The notes below the pieces were generated by a model. That model saw only the letters and a program-made list of their open reading frames with translations, was not told the origin of the DNA and ran no database searches. Source: an uncultured Verrucomicrobiae bacterium (GTDB lineage Bacteria; Verrucomicrobiota; Verrucomicrobiia; Limisphaerales; Palsa-1400). From it: DNA of 64,000 nt. The DNA is taken from positions 1,600,001-1,664,000 of the forward strand of contig CAVXRD010000002.1 in assembly GCA_963764165.1 (NCBI GenBank), in the 5' to 3' direction. Within the stretch, counting starts at the first letter, position 1. Each line of letters opens with the position of its first letter. A program made the translations under genes and the position numbers. Below, piece by piece: positions 1,542 through 54,167 of the stretch.

Positions 1542-1673
1542 GCCACAGATTGACACAGATCAACACAGATTAAAAACCGGGAAACAAAACCGGTCAGCAT
1601 GACATCATCGGCGCTCGGGCTGTCAACCGAAATGCTTTTCAGGAATCTGTGTTGATCTGTGCCAATCTGTGGC
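1542..1673. repeat. Palindromic element A: 30-bp inverted arms with 10-bp-period CAGAT units
   Basis: gccacagattgacacagatcaacacagatt (1542-1571) is a 29/30 reverse complement of aatctgtgttgatctgtgccaatctgtggc (1644-1673); 72-bp spacer. Confidence 0.9.
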
Positions 1674-1689
1674 CTATTTAATTCGGCCA

Positions 1690-2058
1690 ATGAGCGACGA
1701 ACGGGATCCAGTTACGCACGACATCATTGGCGCGGCGTTTGAGGTTTATCGGGTGCTGGGGTATGGCTTTCTCGAAAAAGTTTATCAGCGAGCTTTGCAG
1801 GCGGAATTGGTGCTTCGAAAGCGCAACGCTGGATTGGAGCATCGGATTCCCGTTCAATACAAAGGCGCAGTTGTCGGCGATTATGTCGCCGACCTTTTGG
1901 TGGAGGGTTCTGTGCTTGTGGAATTGAAGGTTGCCCCCGAATATCAGATTGCGGACGAAGCGCAACTGCTCAACCAGTTGAAAGCCACCCGTCTCAAGAT
2001 CGGATTGCTCATCAATTTTGGCCGCTCCAAGGTCGAGTTCAAACGAATGGTCTTCTGA
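1690..2058 (+). CDS. GxxExxY protein (PD-(D/E)xK nuclease superfamily)
   Basis: GFLEKVY motif, ADLLVEGSVLVELK nuclease core, QLLNQLKAT and GLLINFG C-terminal motifs; ATG at 1690. Confidence 0.93.
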   Translation: MSDERDPVTHDIIGAAFEVYRVLGYGFLEKVYQRALQAELVLRKRNAGLEHRIPVQYKGAVVGDYVADLLVEGSVLVELKVAPEYQIADEAQLLNQLKATRLKIGLLINFGRSKVEFKRMVF

Positions 2059-2061
2059 AAA

Positions 2062-2091
2062 AATCTGTGTTGATCTATGTGAATCTGTGGC
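2062..2091. repeat. Single 30-bp arm directly after the GxxExxY stop
   Basis: aatctgtgttgatctatgtgaatctgtggc; direct repeat (27/30) of 1644-1673. Confidence 0.9.
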
Positions 2092-2292
2092 TGTTTTGCC
2101 CCAAGTTGCGAAATATTGAGAAATAATTCGCTTTGCGTCCGGGGCCGGGGCATATTGCCCAAGTTCGTTAGATGGCTTAGTTCGTTTCAAGTCTGGAGAA
2201 TTCTCAAGTGAACTTGGTTCTGTGATGATTCGAAACCCGATTGTCGGGGACTATTTGGAGCAAAGGGTTTGTCTTTTAGAACATCACATAAC

Positions 2293-2601
2293 ATGAGTAA
2301 TAATAAATTGTTCGTTGGAAATCTTTCCTTCAACACCACCCAAAACGATCTTCAAGACAAGTTTTCCGCCCACGGCACCGTGCAGGAAGTCAACTTGATG
2401 ATGGATCGCGAAACCGGCCGCCCCCGCGGCTTCGGCTTCATCACCATGAGCACCGACGCTGAAGGCCAGGCCGCCATCGACGCGCTCAACGGCCAGACCG
2501 TTGATGGCCGCGCCCTGACGGTTAATGTTGCCAAGCCGCGCGAAGAGCGCAGCGGTGGCGATCGCCGCCCCTACAGTGGTGCGGGCCGATCCAGCCGATA
2601 A
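2293..2601 (+). CDS. RRM/RNP-1 RNA-binding protein
   Basis: KLFVGNLSF (RNP2), [10 protein letters not shown] (RNP1), Gly/Arg-rich tail. Confidence 0.93.
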
Positions 2602-2621
2602 TACTCGGTAGAATATTTCAG

Positions 2622-2659
2622 GCGAGGATTGGGTAAAACCATTCCTCGTTCTTTTTTTT
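2622..2659 (+). terminator. Probable intrinsic terminator after the RRM gene
   Basis: Imperfect hairpin gcgaggattgg...ccattcctcgt followed by a T8 run. Confidence 0.6.
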
Positions 2660-2722
2660 CTGCTCGTGACCGGTTGGTTGCCGGAAACGGGCCATATTTT
2701 TAGCAGGTTACCGAAAAACAAC

Positions 2723-2947
2723 ATGACACAAGCAAAAGAGCAGCACATTGAAGTGGAAGGCGTGGTCGCGGTGGTCCTTCCCGGCACGATGTTCCGGGTT
2801 GAATTGTCGAACAAGCACATCGTGCTGGCGACGATTTGCGGCAAGATGCGCAAGCGCTGGGTGCGCCTGACCGTCGGCGACCGCGTGAAGCTGGAAATGT
2901 CGCCTTACGATTTGAACCGGGCGCGCATCACCTGGCGCCTCGGATAA
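2723..2947 (+). CDS. infA: Translation initiation factor IF-1
   Basis: [56 protein letters not shown]. Confidence 0.96.
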
Positions 2948-2970
2948 TCACGAAGGCCGTTGAGGCTGAG

Positions 2971-3113
2971 GCCGCAGATTGACGCAGATGAACGCAGATA
3001 AGAGGCCGAACCCAACTAACGTGGTTCGGTCACGCGCCGCCTCATTGGCCAGACGCGGGTTAAACAACCATTCTTTCAGAAACAATCTGCGTTGATCTGC
3101 GTCCCTCTGCGGC
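2971..3113. repeat. Palindromic element B (same 30-bp arm family)
   Basis: gccgcagattgacgcagatgaacgcagata (2971-3000) and aatctgcgttgatctgcgtccctctgcggc (3084-3113); 83-bp spacer. Confidence 0.85.
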
Positions 3114-3148
3114 TCTTTCCTCCCTCCGGAATTCTGCTATCTTGGAAG

Positions 3149-3781
3149 ATGCATTGTTTGATTAAGGAGTGGAGAACGGCCATCGTGTTTTTGACAGTAT
3201 GTTTGTGCGCCGGCTGTTCCAGCTTCACCTATTCTCCGGCTTATCCCGCATCCTATCCGCCATTGGCAAATCGGGCCGGCCTGGCCATTCAGCGGGGCAA
3301 AGATTTGCGCCCGCCGGACCGCATCACCCCAGGATGGTGCAAGCCCGCCGAGCCAATCGTCGCGCGCGCCCTGGCTGAAGAAGCGCGCCACGCGAATCTT
3401 TTTGAGCGCGTGAAAGTGCATCCCCGAGCCGCAAACCCCAACAAGTATCCGATTCTGGTCGAGTGTGACGTGATTAAATTCGATTGCGTGAACACAGCCA
3501 CCGTTTTCGAGAATATCGGACGGACCGTGCTGCAAGCGCAAGGGCTTCACGGCGCGCTCATCGCCGCCAGCATCCCCTCCGAATACACCTCCGAGATCGA
3601 GATCCGATTTCAAGTTCTGGACCCGGCGACTGGCCTCCCCAAATTCGCGAGGAACTACCGCGCCCAGCGCACAACGACCGCCAACGGATACCAGGGAAAA
3701 AAGCCCTTGATGCAACAAACCAGCGCCGCCTTGGAAGAAGTCATCGCCCAGTTCTTACGCGATCTGGCTAAGATGCCATAA
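3149..3781 (+). CDS. Hypothetical lipoprotein
   Basis: Hydrophobic N-terminus ending in lipobox-like CAGC; 210-aa ORF exactly between elements B and C. Confidence 0.7.
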   Translation: MHCLIKEWRTAIVFLTVCLCAGCSSFTYSPAYPASYPPLANRAGLAIQRGKDLRPPDRITPGWCKPAEPIVARALAEEARHANLFERVKVHPRAANPNKYPILVECDVIKFDCVNTATVFENIGRTVLQAQGLHGALIAASIPSEYTSEIEIRFQVLDPATGLPKFARNYRAQRTTTANGYQGKKPLMQQTSAALEEVIAQFLRDLAKMP

Positions 3782-3788
3782 CTCTTTT

Positions 3789-3927
3789 GCCGCAGATGGA
3801 CGCAGACTAAAAGCAATTCAGGCGGAACTCGACAAACACGGCTCGGACACACCCCGAGGTCTGGACAGACGCGTGTCAAACAATTATTCTTCAGAAAAAT
3901 CTGCGTTGATCTGCGTTAATCCGCGGC
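3789..3927. repeat. Palindromic element C (same family; spacer homologous to element B)
   Basis: gccgcagatggacgcagactaaaagcaatt (3789-3818) and aatctgcgttgatctgcgttaatccgcggc (3898-3927); spacer aligns by eye with the B spacer. Confidence 0.85.
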
Positions 3928-4599
3928 TAAACCCGGCCAGGAACGAGGATCGGAATCCGATAACACACGACCCCAGCGCTGCGGCTCTTGCACCCGCGCG
4001 GCGGCGGTTTTCCGTGGATCGATTTTATCCGCCAGCACATCTTCGATCACTTTTTCGGTCAGTTGCGACGGGTACCCAATCCACGCAATACGGCCTGCTT
4101 TGTTAATAATGACGGCGGTGGGGATGGTGTGGCCTTCGACTTTGCGCTTCCACCAGTGGCTCGCCATAAAACCATTTGTGTCCTGCGTCTTGTCATCCAT
4201 CGCGACGCGGTATGTCATCTTGCCGCCCATTTTTTTCACGAAAGGCTCCACGGCTTCGTCTTTGTCCCAGACGTTTTGGCCGATCACGATGACACCCTTG
4301 TCCTTGAATTTCTCCGCCAGCTCATTGAGATGCGGAATGGATACGAGGCAAGGTCCGCACCATGTGGCCCAGAATTCGACAATGTATACGTGGTCTGCAT
4401 CGAATTGCCGGACCGGCTCGCCTTGCACCCATTTGCCGACTTGGAGCGTGGGCGCGGGATCTCCGATGTTGAGCATCGCGCATTCCGCGCGCAGAGCAGC
4501 AAAGACCGTCATTCCGAGCAACAAAAAAATTCGATTTGAAAAAGGCAGATTTTTCATTTCGTTTCCATTCAATGCCATCCGCCAAACTTCGTCAACCAT
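3916..4599 (-). CDS. TlpA/ResA-like thiol-disulfide oxidoreductase (possibly C-terminally truncated)
   Basis: IGDPAPTL, VEFWATWCGPC motif, signal peptide; true start may be the downstream ATG (MKNLPF). Confidence 0.85.
   Translation of the reverse strand: MVDEVWRMALNGNEMKNLPFSNRIFLLLGMTVFAALRAECAMLNIGDPAPTLQVGKWVQGEPVRQFDADHVYIVEFWATWCGPCLVSIPHLNELAEKFKDKGVIVIGQNVWDKDEAVEPFVKKMGGKMTYRVAMDDKTQDTNGFMASHWWKRKVEGHTIPTAVIINKAGRIAWIGYPSQLTEKVIEDVLADKIDPRKTAAARVQEPQRWGRVLSDSDPRSWPGLAAD
3933..3989 (+). pseudogene. 5' remnant of a second GxxExxY gene
   Basis: cggccaggaacgaggatcggaatccgataacacacgac resembles cggccaatgagcgacgaacgggatccagttacgcacgac at 1684-1720; peptide NEDRNPITHDPSAAA vs SDERDPVTHDIIGAA; same position relative to the repeat arm. 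Confidence 0.65.
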
Positions 4600-4618: not shown

Positions 4619-4800
4619 GCAGAGGCATCTTAATTCCAAGGCAGGGACGCCTCGCCGAGGCGCCCGGTTGCGCGGAAAGGTGCGAAGGGCTGCGGGAAAG
4701 CAGAGCCTCACCCCGGACGCCTCGGCGAGGCGTCCCTACCAATCAACAAGCTTGGCGCTCGTTGATTTTCAATAGATTACAAGAATTAAGATGCGTCTGC
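4619..4800. mobile_element. MITE-like element with 18-bp terminal inverted repeats enclosing a REP doublet
   Basis: gcagaggcatcttaattc (4619-4636) vs gaattaagatgcgtctgc (4783-4800), 17/18 complementary. Confidence 0.55.
4641..4740. repeat. REP doublet (REPIN-like), GGACGCCTCGCCGAGGCGTCC family
   Basis: gcagggacgcctcgccgaggcgcccgg ... ccggacgcctcggcgaggcgtccctacc; G(C/T)AG...CTAC ends. Confidence 0.85.
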
Positions 4801-19902: not shown

Positions 19903-19916
19903 GGAGAAATGTTCTA

Positions 19917-21017
19917 TTGATCTCTGTATAATATAGTGACAATATCACCAAAGCTCGGCTTGCTTCCAGAAGGCAGTGACCAATTTGGGTCTGCGCCGCA
20001 TCCGGCTCAGGGCCTTGCGCCCGCAATGACTCAACTTCGCCAGGTCGGCCGCGCAAAGATTGGGCAACTCGTGCTGCTTGAAGTAACCCCAGACATACTC
20101 GGTGGGATTGAGTTCGGGCGCATAGGCAGGCAGTCGTTCCACCCAGATTTTGCCTTTCAGTTGATCCACATAGTCCCGCACCAGCCGGCTGCGGTGGATG
20201 GGACCACCGTCCCAAATGACCAGAAGCTTGCCCGGGATGTGGCGTTGCAGATGTTTCAAGAATTCGATCACCTGCGGGCCTTTGATGGTGCCGGGGTAAA
20301 GCCGGAAGTAAAAGTTCCAGACCGTCACCCCGGCGATGATCGAAAGCTTTTTCCAGTTGAAGTCGAACTGCAATACCGGGGTCTGGCCGCGCGGCGCCCA
20401 AGTGCGAACCCGGTGCGGCTTCTGGCTCAATCCGCTCTCGTCGATGAAAACCACGATTCGCCTCTCGCGGAGGGCTTTTTTTTAAGCTGCGGCCAGCGCA
20501 CTTTGCGCCAGCGGGTGATCTCCCGCTCATGGCGCTGCCGAGCCTGGGTGGTGGGCCGCTGGCAGCTCCAACCCAGCTTTTGCAGAAGCCGGCAAACATG
20601 GTCCTCGTGGTATTGGACGCCCGTCAACCGTTGGATAACGGCGGCCACCCGCCGGGTGGTCCAAAGCTGGGTGCCAAAGTCATGGGCTTCGGGTCCCTGT
20701 TTGAGGGCCCGTTCCAACTGGCGGAAGTTCTCGTCGGTCAGGCGGGGCTTGCGCCCGGCTCGCCCAGCCTTTTTGAGAGAGGGCGCGCCATGGTCCTGCC
20801 AAGCCTTATGCCAGCGGCTGACCGATTGCCGGTGGACGCCAACTTGGCGGGCGACCTCGGCCTGGCTCAAGCCTCGGTCGAAAAGTTTGACGGCTTTCAT
20901 GCGCCGCCGTTCCAGTTGTGCAAACTGCGCCAAATCGCGTTTTACGCCTTTAGGATTTCCCATACCCAAAAATTAGCATAAAAACAATAATGTGTCACTA
21001 TATTATGCAGAGATCAA
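19917..21017 (-). mobile_element. IS630-family insertion sequence, 1101 bp
   Basis: 25-bp TIRs ttgatctctgtataatatagtgaca / tgtcactatattatgcagagatcaa (1 mismatch), flanked by TA at 19915-19916 and 21018-21019. Confidence 0.93.
19945..20963 (-). CDS. IS630 transposase split over two frames (HTH ORF + DDE ORF) joined at an A8 slippery site
   Basis: ORF A carries HTH and WTTRRV; ORF B carries FIDESG, IWDGGPIH, LPAYAPELNPTE; T8 at 20476-20483 on the + strand. Confidence 0.9.
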
Positions 21018-21089
21018 TAAATGGATACGAGGGTTGGGGCAATGGGAATCAGGCCAATGTCGCGGATCCGCCCCGTGGAGCGTCTCCCG

Positions 21090-24571: not shown

Positions 24572-27500
24572 TTACGGCGCGGTAATACGGTAATAGCGAG
24601 CAGGATAATTCTCCCATTTCGCATCGCTGAACACCACGGAGCCGTTGGTGAGGGTGCAGGACAGAACGGGCAGCCATGTGGAATCAGCCAAATTTGTACT
24701 GGCTTCCACCACGATGGGAATATTTGCGGTGCCCGTGATGTTGAAACCAAACAGGTTCCCGTTTGCCCCAAAGGTGGTCCCGCCCGACTGCATCAGGGGA
24801 TTCCACCGCGACGCCGGAAGGCCTGCAAAGGTCGAACTCCAGCCGGTCCTTCCCGGGAGATAATAGGCAGTTGGGCTGTTTTGGCCAAACACAGCGCCAT
24901 TTGTGGCTGGCGCGTTGCCCGCAAAAAAAACTCCGGTCAAATTGTAACAACCATAAAACGCATCTGCCCCGATGCTGGTGATGCTGGCCGGGATCGTGAT
25001 GTTTGTCAGACTTTCGCACGCGTAGAACACGTAGGCGGGGAGCGCTGTCACGCTGCTTGGAATCGTTACGTTCTTCAACGCGTACATTTCCTCGAATGCG
25101 TAGGCCCCAATGCTGGTGACGCTCTCGGGAATGGTCAGGGTCGAAAGGCTTGCGCAGAGCCCGAAAGCGTACTGCCCGATCGAGGTGACGCTGTCAGGAA
25201 TTGCCACGGACGACAAATCGTAACAATCGTAAAACGCGTATGCTCCGATGGTGGTGACAGTGTTAGGAATGACGGCATTGGTCAAGCCCGAGGAGTAGGC
25301 AAAAAGATAACTTCCCAGCGTCGTCACACCGTTTGGAATGACGATCTCTCCCAAACTGGTGTTTTCAAACACGTAATTCCCAATTCCGGCAACGCTGGCA
25401 GGAATCGTGATCGTCTTGAGACTCTGGCAATCGTAGAACGCGCCGTCGCCAATATTCGTCACGCCGCTGGAAATCGCGACATTGGTCAGATATAAGCAAT
25501 AGCCAAACGCATAAGCTCCCAGATTTCGGACGCTGCCGGGAATTATTACCCGATAAAGGCTGTCGCAAGATTCAAAGGCGTCTTCGCCGATGCTTTGCAC
25601 GTTTGGGCCGATTGTGATGGGGAGTTCATTGCATTCATAGAATGCGTAGTCGCCAAAGTTTGTGACGCCGCTAAGGCTTCCCACATTCGTCAAGAAGGAG
25701 CATTCATAAAACGCTTGCGATCCAATGCTGGTGACACTGCCGGGGAAAGCGGCGCTGGCGAGACTCGTGCAAAGACAGAAGGTGGCGTTTCCAATCATCG
25801 GCAGATAGCCTCCCTCAAATGTCACTTTCGCAAGGCTCCCACATCCATAAAATGTCCCATTTCCCAGATTGTTCACACTGGCGGGAATGGTCATTCTGAC
25901 GAGGTTGGTGCAGGATGCAAAGGCGTCATCTCCGATGTTGGTAACGCTGGTTGGGATCGTGATGTTGGTAAGGACGGAGCCCGCGAACGCGTCTTCCGCG
26001 ATGCTCGTGACCCCGTAAGGGATGCTGAACGACGCCGCGTTGCTTCCTGTCGGAAATTGGATGAGTTCCGTCCCGCTATAATTGTACAACACGCCCTCGA
26101 CGCTGCTGTAGGCTGGGTTGTTTGGGGCGACATTTACCGCAGTCACCTCAACGAGTTCAAAAAACGCGTTTGTTCCAAGATTGGTGACACTGCCTGGAAT
26201 GGTGATCGTCGCCAGCGCGTCGCCGTCGAACGCGAAGTTTCCGATATACCCGATCCCGGCGCCGAGTGTTGCGTTGGTGAGCTGGCGGCAGTTGTCGAAC
26301 GCATAGTCTCCAACACACGTCACGCTGGCTGGAATAGTGATGTTGGTCAGAGCGCACCCCTCAAAGGCATTTGATCCGATGTTTATGGCGCCCGTTCCCA
26401 GCGAGAGGGCCGCCAGTTCGTAGCATTCGTAGAACGCAGAGTTCCCGATGTTCGTAACGCTGTTGGGGATCACCACGCCCTTAAGCCCTGAGCATTCGTA
26501 GAAGGCATAGTTGCCAATATTTGCCACATTCGTTCCAATGGTGACGTTGGTCAGCGCCGTGCCCACGAATGCGTAATCCCCGATATTGGTGATGCTGTTG
26601 GGAATTGCGATGCGGGACAGATCGTAACACCCGGAAAACGCATTGGATCCAATGTCATTGCAGCTTGCGCCAATCGAAATGTTGGTCAGATACATGCAGT
26701 TGGAGAAGGCAAGACCGAAGTTTGTGACACTGTCCGGAATTGCGACCGAGCGAAGCTGGCTTCCCGAGAACGCATAATCTCCAATGCTTGCGGCGTTCGC
26801 TCCCACCGTGATCTGCTTCAGTTGTCCGCAATGATAAAAAGCGTAGGGGCCGATATTGGCCACGCCGCCGGGAATTGAAACGTTGGTCAGCAAGTTGCAA
26901 TATTCGAACATGCCGGATCCAACGGACGCGGCGTTCGTGCTTAGTGTGGCAGACGAAAGATTCGAGCACCCGTAAAACAAATAGTTTCCTATGTTCGTGA
27001 CACTGTTTGGAATCGTTGAGTTGGTCAGCTTGGTGTCCGCGAAAGCATAATCTCCAATGCTGGCCACTCTGCCGCCAAGAGGGGCATTGACCAAATAATT
27101 ACAATCGTAAAACGCATAACCACCAATGCCGACGAGGCTGTTCGGGAATGCGACACTCTCGATCGAAGCCCCAGCGAATGCATAATTGCCGATATAACTG
27201 ACATTTGGCCCCATTGTGACGGTCTCTAACCGAGCACCGGCGAACGCGTAATCGCCGATATTGGTGACGCTGTTCGAAATGGCGTAAACATAGTTGAGTG
27301 GTCCGCCTTGGCATTGGATGAAAGTAGTCAGGCTCTGATTGAGCAGCGCGCCAGCCATGCTGGCGTAAGCGGGATTGTTGGAATCCACATTGATCGCCCT
27401 CAAATACGTGCAATAACCAAATGCGCCCGTGCCAATGTTTGTGACACCGGCGGGTATAACAATATTGGTCAGTCCGCTGTAGGCAAACGCCCAGCTGCCG

Positions 27501-28147
27501 ATGCTGGATACATTCGTTCCAATCGTGACATGGGCCAGGCCCAGGCAGAAATCGAATGCGTAATCCCCCACATTGGTAACGCTATCGGGGATTGCGATGA
27601 TGAGCAAGTAGACGGCACCCTGAAACGCGGCGGATCCGATGCTCGTCACGTTGTTGGAGATCGTATAATTTCCAATGCCTCCCGGGAATTGCAGAAGCGT
27701 GGTTTGCTGTTGATTGAACAAGACGCCCCCGGCGCTGGCGTAGGCTGGATTGCTGGCTTCCACGTTGATCGCCGACAGGTAGTAGCAGTCAGCAAAAGCT
27801 CCAATGCCGATGTTGGTGACGCCGGCCGGGATCGTCACGCTGGTCAGCCGGGACTCAAAAAACGCATAGGATCCAATGCTGGTGATGCTCTCGGGTATGC
27901 TGACGCCGCTTATCTCGGCGTTATAAAATGCATTGGTTCCTATCCCTGTCACAGGCAAGCCATTGATGGTTTCGGGAATCGTTACAGGAACCGAGCTGAA
28001 TCCAGTAAACCCGGTAATCGTGATCGCGCCGTTGTTGGTGATGTAGCTGAACGATTGCGCGCGAACCGATGCCGCAGTGGCCAGGCTGAGAGCACAGAGA
28101 CACAGTCGGACGGCGGAACTCATATTCATATTCATCTTCCTTCCCAT
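24572..28147 (-). CDS. BspA-like leucine-rich repeat (LRR_5) surface protein
   Basis: Signal peptide; dozens of IPxSVTxIGxYAF repeats; C-terminal beta domain. Confidence 0.92.
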   Translation of the reverse strand: MGRKMNMNMSSAVRLCLCALSLATAASVRAQSFSYITNNGAITITGFTGFSSVPVTIPETINGLPVTGIGTNAFYNAEISGVSIPESITSIGSYAFFESRLTSVTIPAGVTNIGIGAFADCYYLSAINVEASNPAYASAGGVLFNQQQTTLLQFPGGIGNYTISNNVTSIGSAAFQGAVYLLIIAIPDSVTNVGDYAFDFCLGLAHVTIGTNVSSIGSWAFAYSGLTNIVIPAGVTNIGTGAFGYCTYLRAINVDSNNPAYASMAGALLNQSLTTFIQCQGGPLNYVYAISNSVTNIGDYAFAGARLETVTMGPNVSYIGNYAFAGASIESVAFPNSLVGIGGYAFYDCNYLVNAPLGGRVASIGDYAFADTKLTNSTIPNSVTNIGNYLFYGCSNLSSATLSTNAASVGSGMFEYCNLLTNVSIPGGVANIGPYAFYHCGQLKQITVGANAASIGDYAFSGSQLRSVAIPDSVTNFGLAFSNCMYLTNISIGASCNDIGSNAFSGCYDLSRIAIPNSITNIGDYAFVGTALTNVTIGTNVANIGNYAFYECSGLKGVVIPNSVTNIGNSAFYECYELAALSLGTGAINIGSNAFEGCALTNITIPASVTCVGDYAFDNCRQLTNATLGAGIGYIGNFAFDGDALATITIPGSVTNLGTNAFFELVEVTAVNVAPNNPAYSSVEGVLYNYSGTELIQFPTGSNAASFSIPYGVTSIAEDAFAGSVLTNITIPTSVTNIGDDAFASCTNLVRMTIPASVNNLGNGTFYGCGSLAKVTFEGGYLPMIGNATFCLCTSLASAAFPGSVTSIGSQAFYECSFLTNVGSLSGVTNFGDYAFYECNELPITIGPNVQSIGEDAFESCDSLYRVIIPGSVRNLGAYAFGYCLYLTNVAISSGVTNIGDGAFYDCQSLKTITIPASVAGIGNYVFENTSLGEIVIPNGVTTLGSYLFAYSSGLTNAVIPNTVTTIGAYAFYDCYDLSSVAIPDSVTSIGQYAFGLCASLSTLTIPESVTSIGAYAFEEMYALKNVTIPSSVTALPAYVFYACESLTNITIPASITSIGADAFYGCYNLTGVFFAGNAPATNGAVFGQNSPTAYYLPGRTGWSSTFAGLPASRWNPLMQSGGTTFGANGNLFGFNITGTANIPIVVEASTNLADSTWLPVLSCTLTNGSVVFSDAKWENYPARYYRITAP

Positions 28148-49415: not shown

Positions 49416-50261
49416 ATGAACGACTTGTTCGAAGTCGTTTATGAAGACCCGGACATTCTGGTTGTCAACAAACCGGCAGGACTGGTCTGCCATCCGACCA
49501 AGGGCGACGAGTATTCCAGCCTGGTCAGCCGCATCCGCTTGTATTTTAGCATGGCTCGGCAGGAGCCTCGCCCTACCGAGCGTGCGGTAGGGCGAGGCTC
49601 CTGCCGAGCCGACGCCACCACAGCAGATTCTCGCCATACCTCCGCCCATCTCATCAACCGACTTGACAGGGAAACGAGCGGGATTGTCATGGCCGCCAAA
49701 AATTCAGCGGCCGCCGGGGAATTGGGAAAGTTGTGGGAACGCAGAAGCGTGCAGAAATTTTATCTGGCCATTGTGCATGGCACGATGGAGAAGCAGCACA
49801 GCGTCATCGAATTGCCGCTGGGAAAGGACGAGGCCAGCCAGATTGCGGTGAAGGATTGTGTGCGTCCCGACGGCGCAACCGCGCGCACCGAATACATCGC
49901 GCACGCTCATTTTCAGCGGGGCGGGCGGGATTTTTCCCTCGTGCGCGTCTGGCCGTTGACAGGGCGCAAGCATCAAATTCGCATTCATCTCGCAGCCGCC
50001 GGCCACCCCGTTGTCGGGGATAAATTATACGGCGGCGACGAGGATTTATATTTGGCGCTGGCGCAGGATCGATTGACGGACGAGCAGCGGGCGCGATTGA
50101 TTTTGCCGAACCAGGCCCTGCATTGCGTCGAACTCAAATTGACGTGGCGCGGAAATGACATGATATTTCGAGCGCCGCCGGACTCCGCATTTTCGGAATT
50201 TGCGGGGTTGCCAGCGGAAAAGGCAGCAGCCACTGTTACAGCAATCTCTTATGAAAATTGA
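49416..50261 (+). CDS. RluA-family pseudouridine synthase carrying an in-frame REP insertion
   Basis: [32 protein letters not shown]. Confidence 0.92.
49553..49610. repeat. Perfect 25-bp inverted REP pair inside the RluA-family gene
   Basis: ggctcggcaggagcctcgccctacc-gagcgtgc-ggtagggcgaggctcctgccgagcc. Confidence 0.9.
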
Positions 50262-50579: not shown

Positions 50580-50647
50580 GGCAGGGCGAGGCTCCCGCCG
50601 AGCCATTCCCTCATTCGAACATGACTCGGCATGAGCCTCGCCCTGCC
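50580..50647. repeat. REP doublet, G(C/T)AGGGCGAGGCTC family
   Basis: ggcagggcgaggctcccgccgagcc ... gactcggcatgagcctcgccctgcc between convergent genes. Confidence 0.85.
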
Positions 50648-54069: not shown

Positions 54070-54167
54070 GGCAGGGACGCCTCGCCGAGGCTTCCGGCTG
54101 CGTGCGGATATGCGAAGGGCCGGGGGGAAATGAGAGCCTCACTCCGGCCGCCTCGGCGAGGCGTCCC
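54070..54167. repeat. REP doublet closely related to 4641-4740, including the spacer
   Basis: gcagggacgcctcgccgagg..tgcgaagggc..gagcctcactccggccgcctcggcgaggcgtccc. Confidence 0.85.

Follow-up and report, generated by a model that had tools for sequence, protein, structure and literature searches.

A small gene of the GxxExxY family and the periodic repeat arms around it appear to form a single mobile system in the genome of an uncultured Verrucomicrobiae bacterium. The gene lies at positions 1690 to 2058 of a 64,000-nucleotide stretch, referred to here as the window (GenBank assembly GCA_963764165.1, contig CAVXRD010000002.1, positions 1,600,001 to 1,664,000). An arm is about 30 bp long and, in the window, is built from three CAGAT units at 10-bp spacing; two arms facing each other across a spacer are termed a doublet. 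The reading that we favour, with a probability of about 0.6, is that the GxxExxY protein would recognise and cut its own type of arm, spreading cassettes that carry the gene and, in trans, doublets that do not. The genome contains one arm family for each intact GxxExxY gene.

There are three such intact genes, and one broken copy. The gene in the window is accompanied by CAGAT arms, the second intact gene has a doublet of a 9-bp ACAGAAG-type arm on either side, and the third is enclosed by inverted TCAGGAA-type arms. A search of the 7.0-Mb genome with a profile of the CAGAT arm returned 153 matches (1 in a shuffled genome), and the ACAGAAG-type and TCAGGAA-type families number 134 and 193 copies (against 2 and 0 after shuffling), so the three matched families comprise approximately 480 intergenic repeats. 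The sequence-only reading of the window had taken its arms to be members of a wider family, and its triple-unit pattern does recur, with 76 exact matches versus none after shuffling. With patterns that allow one mismatch, the three resident arm types gave 120, 86 and 172 matches in this genome, and 12 arm patterns seen beside other clades of GxxExxY genes gave between 0 and 23. Each clade gene is single-copy here, and for all three intact paralogues a single-copy enzyme gene stands beside its own repeat group. The broken paralogue (L004, C1:65072-65362) is 59 % alike to the window gene over residues 37-112 and lies directly behind a CAGAT arm.

Homologous loci were collected from 60 relatives (29 loci plus another 100 regions, with 14 short or weak matches left out) and from other taxa (the best 80 of 557 matches, with one duplicate removed). 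Together with the four loci of this genome they number 212, of which the 202 that are full length were used for counts. A periodic arm is present near 169 of the 202, most often enclosing the gene, and arms are dense around the genes (370 in 111 kb) relative to more distant sequence (65 in 266 kb). The arm core is common to 38 of 44 cherries of the protein tree (chance 0.25), and is shared in 128 of 189 pairs of proteins that are at least 70 % alike and come from different genomes, and in 8 of 46 disjoint pairs of paralogues from the same genome. Both the enrichment of arms beside GxxExxY genes and the co-variation of arm and protein that had been predicted from the window alone were therefore found. 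The protein tree was derived by a quick search over only 115 columns, with five well-supported clades (Shimodaira-Hasegawa-like approximate likelihood ratio test, SH-aLRT, 98-100). On it, arm type requires 30 changes versus 67 when shuffled, and host genome requires 113 versus 112; as far as these sequences allow, arm type is shown to follow the protein tree and not the host genome. The clade of the window protein has 39 members over eight named phyla, 32 of them with GAT arms. The two clades with GAT arms differ at the outer end of the arm, which is (A/G)GC in 54 of 59 cases in one and AAC in 23 of 24 in the other, and the CAGAT arms of this genome have the (A/G)GC-type end, matching the clade of its gene. 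Homologues are rare on plasmids (8 in 72,556) and none was found on 50,697 phages.

Co-variation of flanking arms would by itself follow from physical linkage, which weakens it as support for recognition, and only a test in trans escapes this. Gene-less arms were therefore counted genome-wide. Four arm types were examined in 61 genomes, the presence of a gene was set by protein identity, 6 arms were subtracted for the gene's own flanks, and the genome described here was left out of the statistic. In 25 of 28 genomes, arms were more numerous for types whose clade gene is resident than for the others (permutation p 0.0002). The second CAGAT clade in this test had been selected on the tree once its arms were known; when CAGAT genes were defined by the window clade only, the same held in 18 of 22 genomes (p 0.002). 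G001, a 95 % complete genome of the same genus, lacks the gene and has 0-1 arms of the four types.

Comparison of loci between species supports insertion. Among 125 cassette loci of relatives, both flanks could be mapped in this genome for 26, and 14 of these were syntenic. At 13 of the 14 junctions this genome holds 0-38 bp instead of 458-828 bp, so that the cassettes occupy operon junctions which lack them in this genome (the junction sequences were inspected for five), and the empty sites anticipated by the sequence-only reading do exist, at least between species. A comparison with elements of G003 and G004 for shared sites gave only 2 syntenic loci among 47, which does not allow a rate to be estimated. 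At one junction (L312, L001), G003 has a CAGAT doublet where this genome has a full ACAGAAG-type cassette, a case of one site used by different families.

The gene in the window (forward strand) encodes 122 aa from an ATG, with its TGA ending at 2058; an in-frame GTG at 1669 is an alternative start and would give a product of 129 aa. It is a member of the GxxExxY family (TIGR04256, 124.9 bits, cut-off 35; PF13366, 120 bits, cut-off 22). The protein is a predicted PD-(D/E)xK nuclease, having both the modelled fold and the catalytic E, D and E-x-K residues. E29, D68, E78, K80 and Q92 are all intact. Among the 202 homologues, E29 and D68 are present in all 202 and K80 in 198, and E78 is conserved as well. 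The ratio of non-synonymous to synonymous substitution rates, at 0.05-0.09, indicates that the gene and its intact catalytic motif are under purifying selection. Residue 96, the Y of the family name, is E in most of the window clade and Q in the window protein (150 Y, 33 E and 8 Q among the 202).

The predicted structure is confident (predicted local distance difference test score, pLDDT, 94.6) and its top structural matches are PD-(D/E)xK proteins that are DNA nucleases. Together with the conserved E29, D68, E78 and K80, it supports the fold that had been assigned from the sequence. The best match is the Cas4 protein SSO0001 (PDB 4ic1; Foldseek E 1.6e-4; VIA Z 8.3, root-mean-square deviation 3.5 Å over 99 residues), with a Z tied with those of other PD-(D/E)xK proteins; a sequence search against solved structures gave no match. 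The protein shares E, D, ExK and QxxxY-like motifs with Cas4/RecB-type nucleases. However, the window protein is only 122 aa long and has no cas context, and it contains no cysteine, so it is not a Cas4: all Cas4 proteins have an iron-sulfur module with four conserved cysteines, according to PMC5704561. One paper uses GxxExxY only as a domain label, and the one review that names the family lists PF13366 as of unknown function (PMC3424549).

The positions of all seven arms and of the gene are as given in the sequence-only reading, with spacers of 72, 83 and 79 bp. Doublet A precedes the gene and consists of a left arm at 1542-1571 (forward strand, three perfect CAGAT units at 10-bp spacing, profile score 54.4), a spacer at 1572-1643 (72 bp) and a right arm at 1644-1673 (reverse strand, three perfect units, 51.5). 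The seventh arm, at 2062-2091 (reverse strand, 46.9), has TAGAT as its middle unit, forms the 3' end of the gene cassette and does start 3 bp past the TGA. Doublet B has its left arm at 2971-3000 (forward strand, CGCAGAT subtype, 46.2), 23 bp past the infA stop, its 83-bp spacer at 3001-3083 and its right arm at 3084-3113 (reverse strand, 42.8). The left arm of doublet C, at 3789-3818 (forward strand), is degenerate with one perfect unit (20.9) and begins 7 bp past the stop of an open reading frame (ORF) ending at 3781. Its 79-bp spacer occupies 3819-3897, and its right arm, at 3898-3927 (reverse strand, 43.2), overlaps the last codons of a minus-strand thioredoxin-like ORF. B and C can be aligned from end to end with 76 % identity.

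Some features of this description had to be amended. Arms of three CAGAT units had been reported throughout, and 3 of the 7 are indeed perfect; the remainder are imperfect. The elements had been called palindromic, which is true of doublets and not of arms: a single arm does not fold (-0.8 kcal/mol, z -1.3, one arm tested), and the hairpin forms between two arms (z -8.6 for A, -8.6 for B and only -2.3 for C, with DNA parameters). The gene is bracketed here by direct arms, as stated, but this is a local arrangement, and homologues most often show the layout arm(+)-gene-arm(-) (45 of 202).

Within the genome, 49 of 51 pairs of adjacent CAGAT arms (at most 320 bp apart) face inwards, giving 49 doublets, with spacer lengths clustered near 7, 22 or 76-90 bp; 55 of the 153 arms are unpaired. 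Only 5 of 145 strong arms fall inside called genes, and the family is thus essentially intergenic. The occupied intergenic regions are 55 % tandem, 33 % divergent and 11 % convergent, close to long intergenic regions generally; these context counts rest on rough in-house gene calls. The A or G choice in the units switches jointly within an arm (85 all-A and 32 all-G, n=153) and is correlated between the two arms of a doublet (rho 0.66). Within 30 kb of the window gene, beyond its own flanks, there are 5 CAGAT elements versus 0.9 expected; the ACAGAAG- and TCAGGAA-type elements show no such excess around their own genes.

The spacers of CAGAT doublets are interrelated (53 of 528 pairs lie above the 99th percentile of the null), and their majority sequence resembles the coding start of the gene followed by its last codons. 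When a profile was built from 32 spacers, with the three from the window excluded, all five of the closest genes ranked among the first 9 of 201 and matched at the coding start. These traces suggest that CAGAT doublets are internal-deletion derivatives of the gene cassette. Doublet A is likely to be one, with approximately 1590-1614 of its spacer like the coding start and approximately 1622-1643 like the last codons; the spacer of B retains a trace of the 5' coding start. The division into an autonomous element and non-autonomous copies made by the sequence-only reading is therefore upheld in part, for CAGAT and not for the other two families, neither of which has gene-end traces. The CAGAT population looks old, with no current burst, because no pair of long doublets reaches 80 % identity (the best is 79 %) and because arms are better conserved than spacers (0.83 versus 0.63). 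Recent copying in this genome was rejected as no long doublets reach that level.

Gene and arms make up a small cassette that has inserted among ordinary genes, and we propose the following mechanism for its spread. Several copies of the protein would bind each arm at its three phased units. Two arms that face inwards would be paired, either in a duplex synapse or in an extruded hairpin, and cleaved close to their outer ends. A PD-(D/E)xK domain on its own should be able to hydrolyse DNA but not to join strands, so host repair would finish the insertion of cassettes and of gene-less doublets. The absence of a target duplication fits completion by host repair. CAGAT doublets would have arisen via internal deletion of the cassette.

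Several observations weigh against this proposal, some of which would be expected if the arms spread by host recombination or as passengers of another enzyme, with the GxxExxY protein merely binding or riding and a use to the host keeping the arms. Half (35 of 70) of the genome-by-type populations with at least 8 arms have no detected matching gene. G004 has 58 CAGAT arms (51 perfect) and no detected matching gene, and in G018, with 52 CAGAT arms, a search for the family gave only genes of other clades. The G004 arms are embedded in near-identical composite repeats, which indicates that arms are able to multiply as passengers. These repeats (L291, L293, L294, L301 and L307) are around 200 bp long with several arm types strung together, and two of them have an insert within an arm. 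In this genome, different arm families share intergenic regions 3-fold above expectation (8, 11 and 8 versus 2.4, 3.7 and 2.9), and the far better conservation of arms than of spacers would also fit retention by the host. Conversely, a clade gene can be present with 0 (G058) or 1 (G040) arms of the tested pattern. The genomes used in trans are kin and not independent, and most assemblies are fragmented and incomplete. Paired CAGAT arms are not better kept than single ones (p 0.14; p ~1e-6 in the other two families), and the lack of long doublets at 80 % identity, like that of gene-end traces in two families, counts on the same side, as do two unrelated genes among the top four of the spacer profile. 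At 44 CAGAT doublets the target duplication averaged 2.5 versus 2.6 for the null, with none above the null, and no outward symmetry above the null was seen at doublet ends; old copies may have lost any duplication. All steps of the mechanism are inferred. We nevertheless regard spread driven otherwise as unlikely, since gene-less arms match the resident gene type-specifically within genomes, each paralogue here has one arm family, G001 lacks both gene and arms, and no Y1 transposase gene stands beside the arms. With 0 of 10 Y1_Tnp genes having these arms within 500 bp, a REP-associated tyrosine transposase (RAYT; REP, repetitive extragenic palindromic) was rejected as the driver.

Action on RNA, as for an rRNA intervening sequence with arms that pair in the transcript, an enclosed part that is processed out and a protein that acts on RNA, is improbable. 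It would suit the long stems of doublets A and B, the position of cassettes in tight operon junctions and the outer ends of CAGAT elements, which are often close to a stop codon (no more than 15 bp away in 18 of 46). However, 33 % of occupied regions are between divergent genes, where read-through is unlikely (28-30 % for long intergenic regions generally, on the same rough gene calls), more than a third of the arms are unpaired, the best fold matches of the protein are DNA nucleases, and Rfam gives no family at the gathering score, with one sub-threshold match. More improbable still is a homing-type process, in which the protein cuts a gene-less doublet and the gene is copied in by recombination through the arms and retained gene ends. 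Spacers do keep both gene ends in order, 7 of 69 sites with a cassette elsewhere have an arm here (4 % background), and the junction occupied by a doublet in G003 and a cassette here could be read in this way. Yet it leaves the arrival of doublets at empty junctions unexplained, each clade gene is single-copy despite 49 available doublets, and two families have no gene-end traces. Least credible is an integron-like arrangement with doublets as recombination sites that capture or shuffle enclosed genes, namely RRM-infA and the ORF ending at 3781; the sequence-only reading had offered such a cassette system as an alternative. CAGAT elements do cluster, with 12 neighbours at distances of up to 3 kb (null mean 4.5, maximum 11), and few genomes (3 of 301) have the ORF that lies between B and C. 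Against it, RRM and infA adjoin each other in G001 and G008 with no arms, the two known homologues of the rare ORF (2 of 2, a small sample) also lack them, and the other two arm families show no clustering; cargo capture is not borne out.

The favoured reading, a nuclease acting on its own arms, is best compared with the REPIN-RAYT systems. As described in PMC3116915, PMC5581495 and PMC8266576, these share with the present system extragenic, over-represented inverted doublets with conserved ends and a variable spacer, and the presence in one genome of several groups, each of which adjoins a distinct enzyme gene of its own in single copy. Their closest enzymes are likewise in different genomes, and in both systems plasmids seldom carry the enzyme gene and no phage was found to do so. 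They differ in that here the enzyme is PD-(D/E)xK and not HUH/Y1, the arms are phased direct repeats with a single unit that is not palindromic, and the GxxExxY gene is usually within one arm pair and at many different loci in related species. RAYTs are described as vertically kept and incapable of moving themselves. The system works like REPIN-RAYT without belonging to it, as the defining HUH enzyme and the palindromic unit are both absent. The REP/RAYT-like layout seen by the sequence-only reading thus stands as to inverted doublets around their own enzyme gene, but not as to enzyme or palindromes.

Bacterial miniature inverted-repeat transposable elements (MITEs; ERIC, Correia/NEMIS and RUP) are short elements with terminal inverted ends. 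CAGAT doublets, which resemble internal deletions of a gene-carrying parent, are like them, but here no target duplication was found, there is no DDE transposase, the ends consist of 8-11-bp periodic units and the copies are much more diverged. ORF-bearing 23S rRNA intervening sequences have a small ORF enclosed by inverted repeats, and PD-(D/E)xK homing endonucleases are encoded by selfish nuclease genes. Both likenesses apply, but the present elements lie outside rRNA and introns, at many unrelated junctions and with >100 gene-less copies. A four-helix-bundle family was rejected, with one partial match only.

No description of a GxxExxY gene-plus-arms system, or of the six arm motifs, was found in the literature searched (subscription journals and supplements lay outside the search), and this is a real and apparently unpublished variant of the enzyme-plus-repeat kind. 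There is an even chance, in our estimate, that GxxExxY proteins drive a chemically new class of mobile DNA, in which a 122-residue PD-(D/E)xK nuclease reads a clade-specific 8-11-bp phased repeat code and several orthogonal nuclease-repeat pairs replicate side by side in one chromosome. The GxxExxY/PF13366 family would gain a specific candidate substrate and a likely role, one that would also explain the approximately 480 intergenic repeats of this genome, and the logic of REPIN-RAYT would extend to an unrelated enzyme fold. The three enzyme-arm pairs in one genome provide built-in specificity controls, and compact nucleases of this kind, sequence-specific and naturally diverse in their codes, could also be of use as tools.

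The ORF between B and C (3149-3781), present in 3 of 301 genomes of the order, has no Pfam or NCBIfam match and is lipoprotein-like by eye. The window also contains repeats of other kinds. A palindromic REP-like repeat at 4645-4735, 51843, 54075-54166, 58203 and 59611 has 550 exact pattern matches genome-wide on both strands, and none was found within 500 bp of the 10 Y1 transposase genes. A second REP-like family (49553-49610 and 50584-50645) has 52 exact matches genome-wide, and a third, hairpin-type repeat at 34-162 has many copies in G008. Inverted repeats of 27 bp at 19915-21019 surround two overlapping minus-strand ORFs, which we take to be a split IS630-type transposase. A long coding repeat of 66-69 bp on the minus strand at 24900-27900 is like that of a leucine-rich-repeat surface protein.

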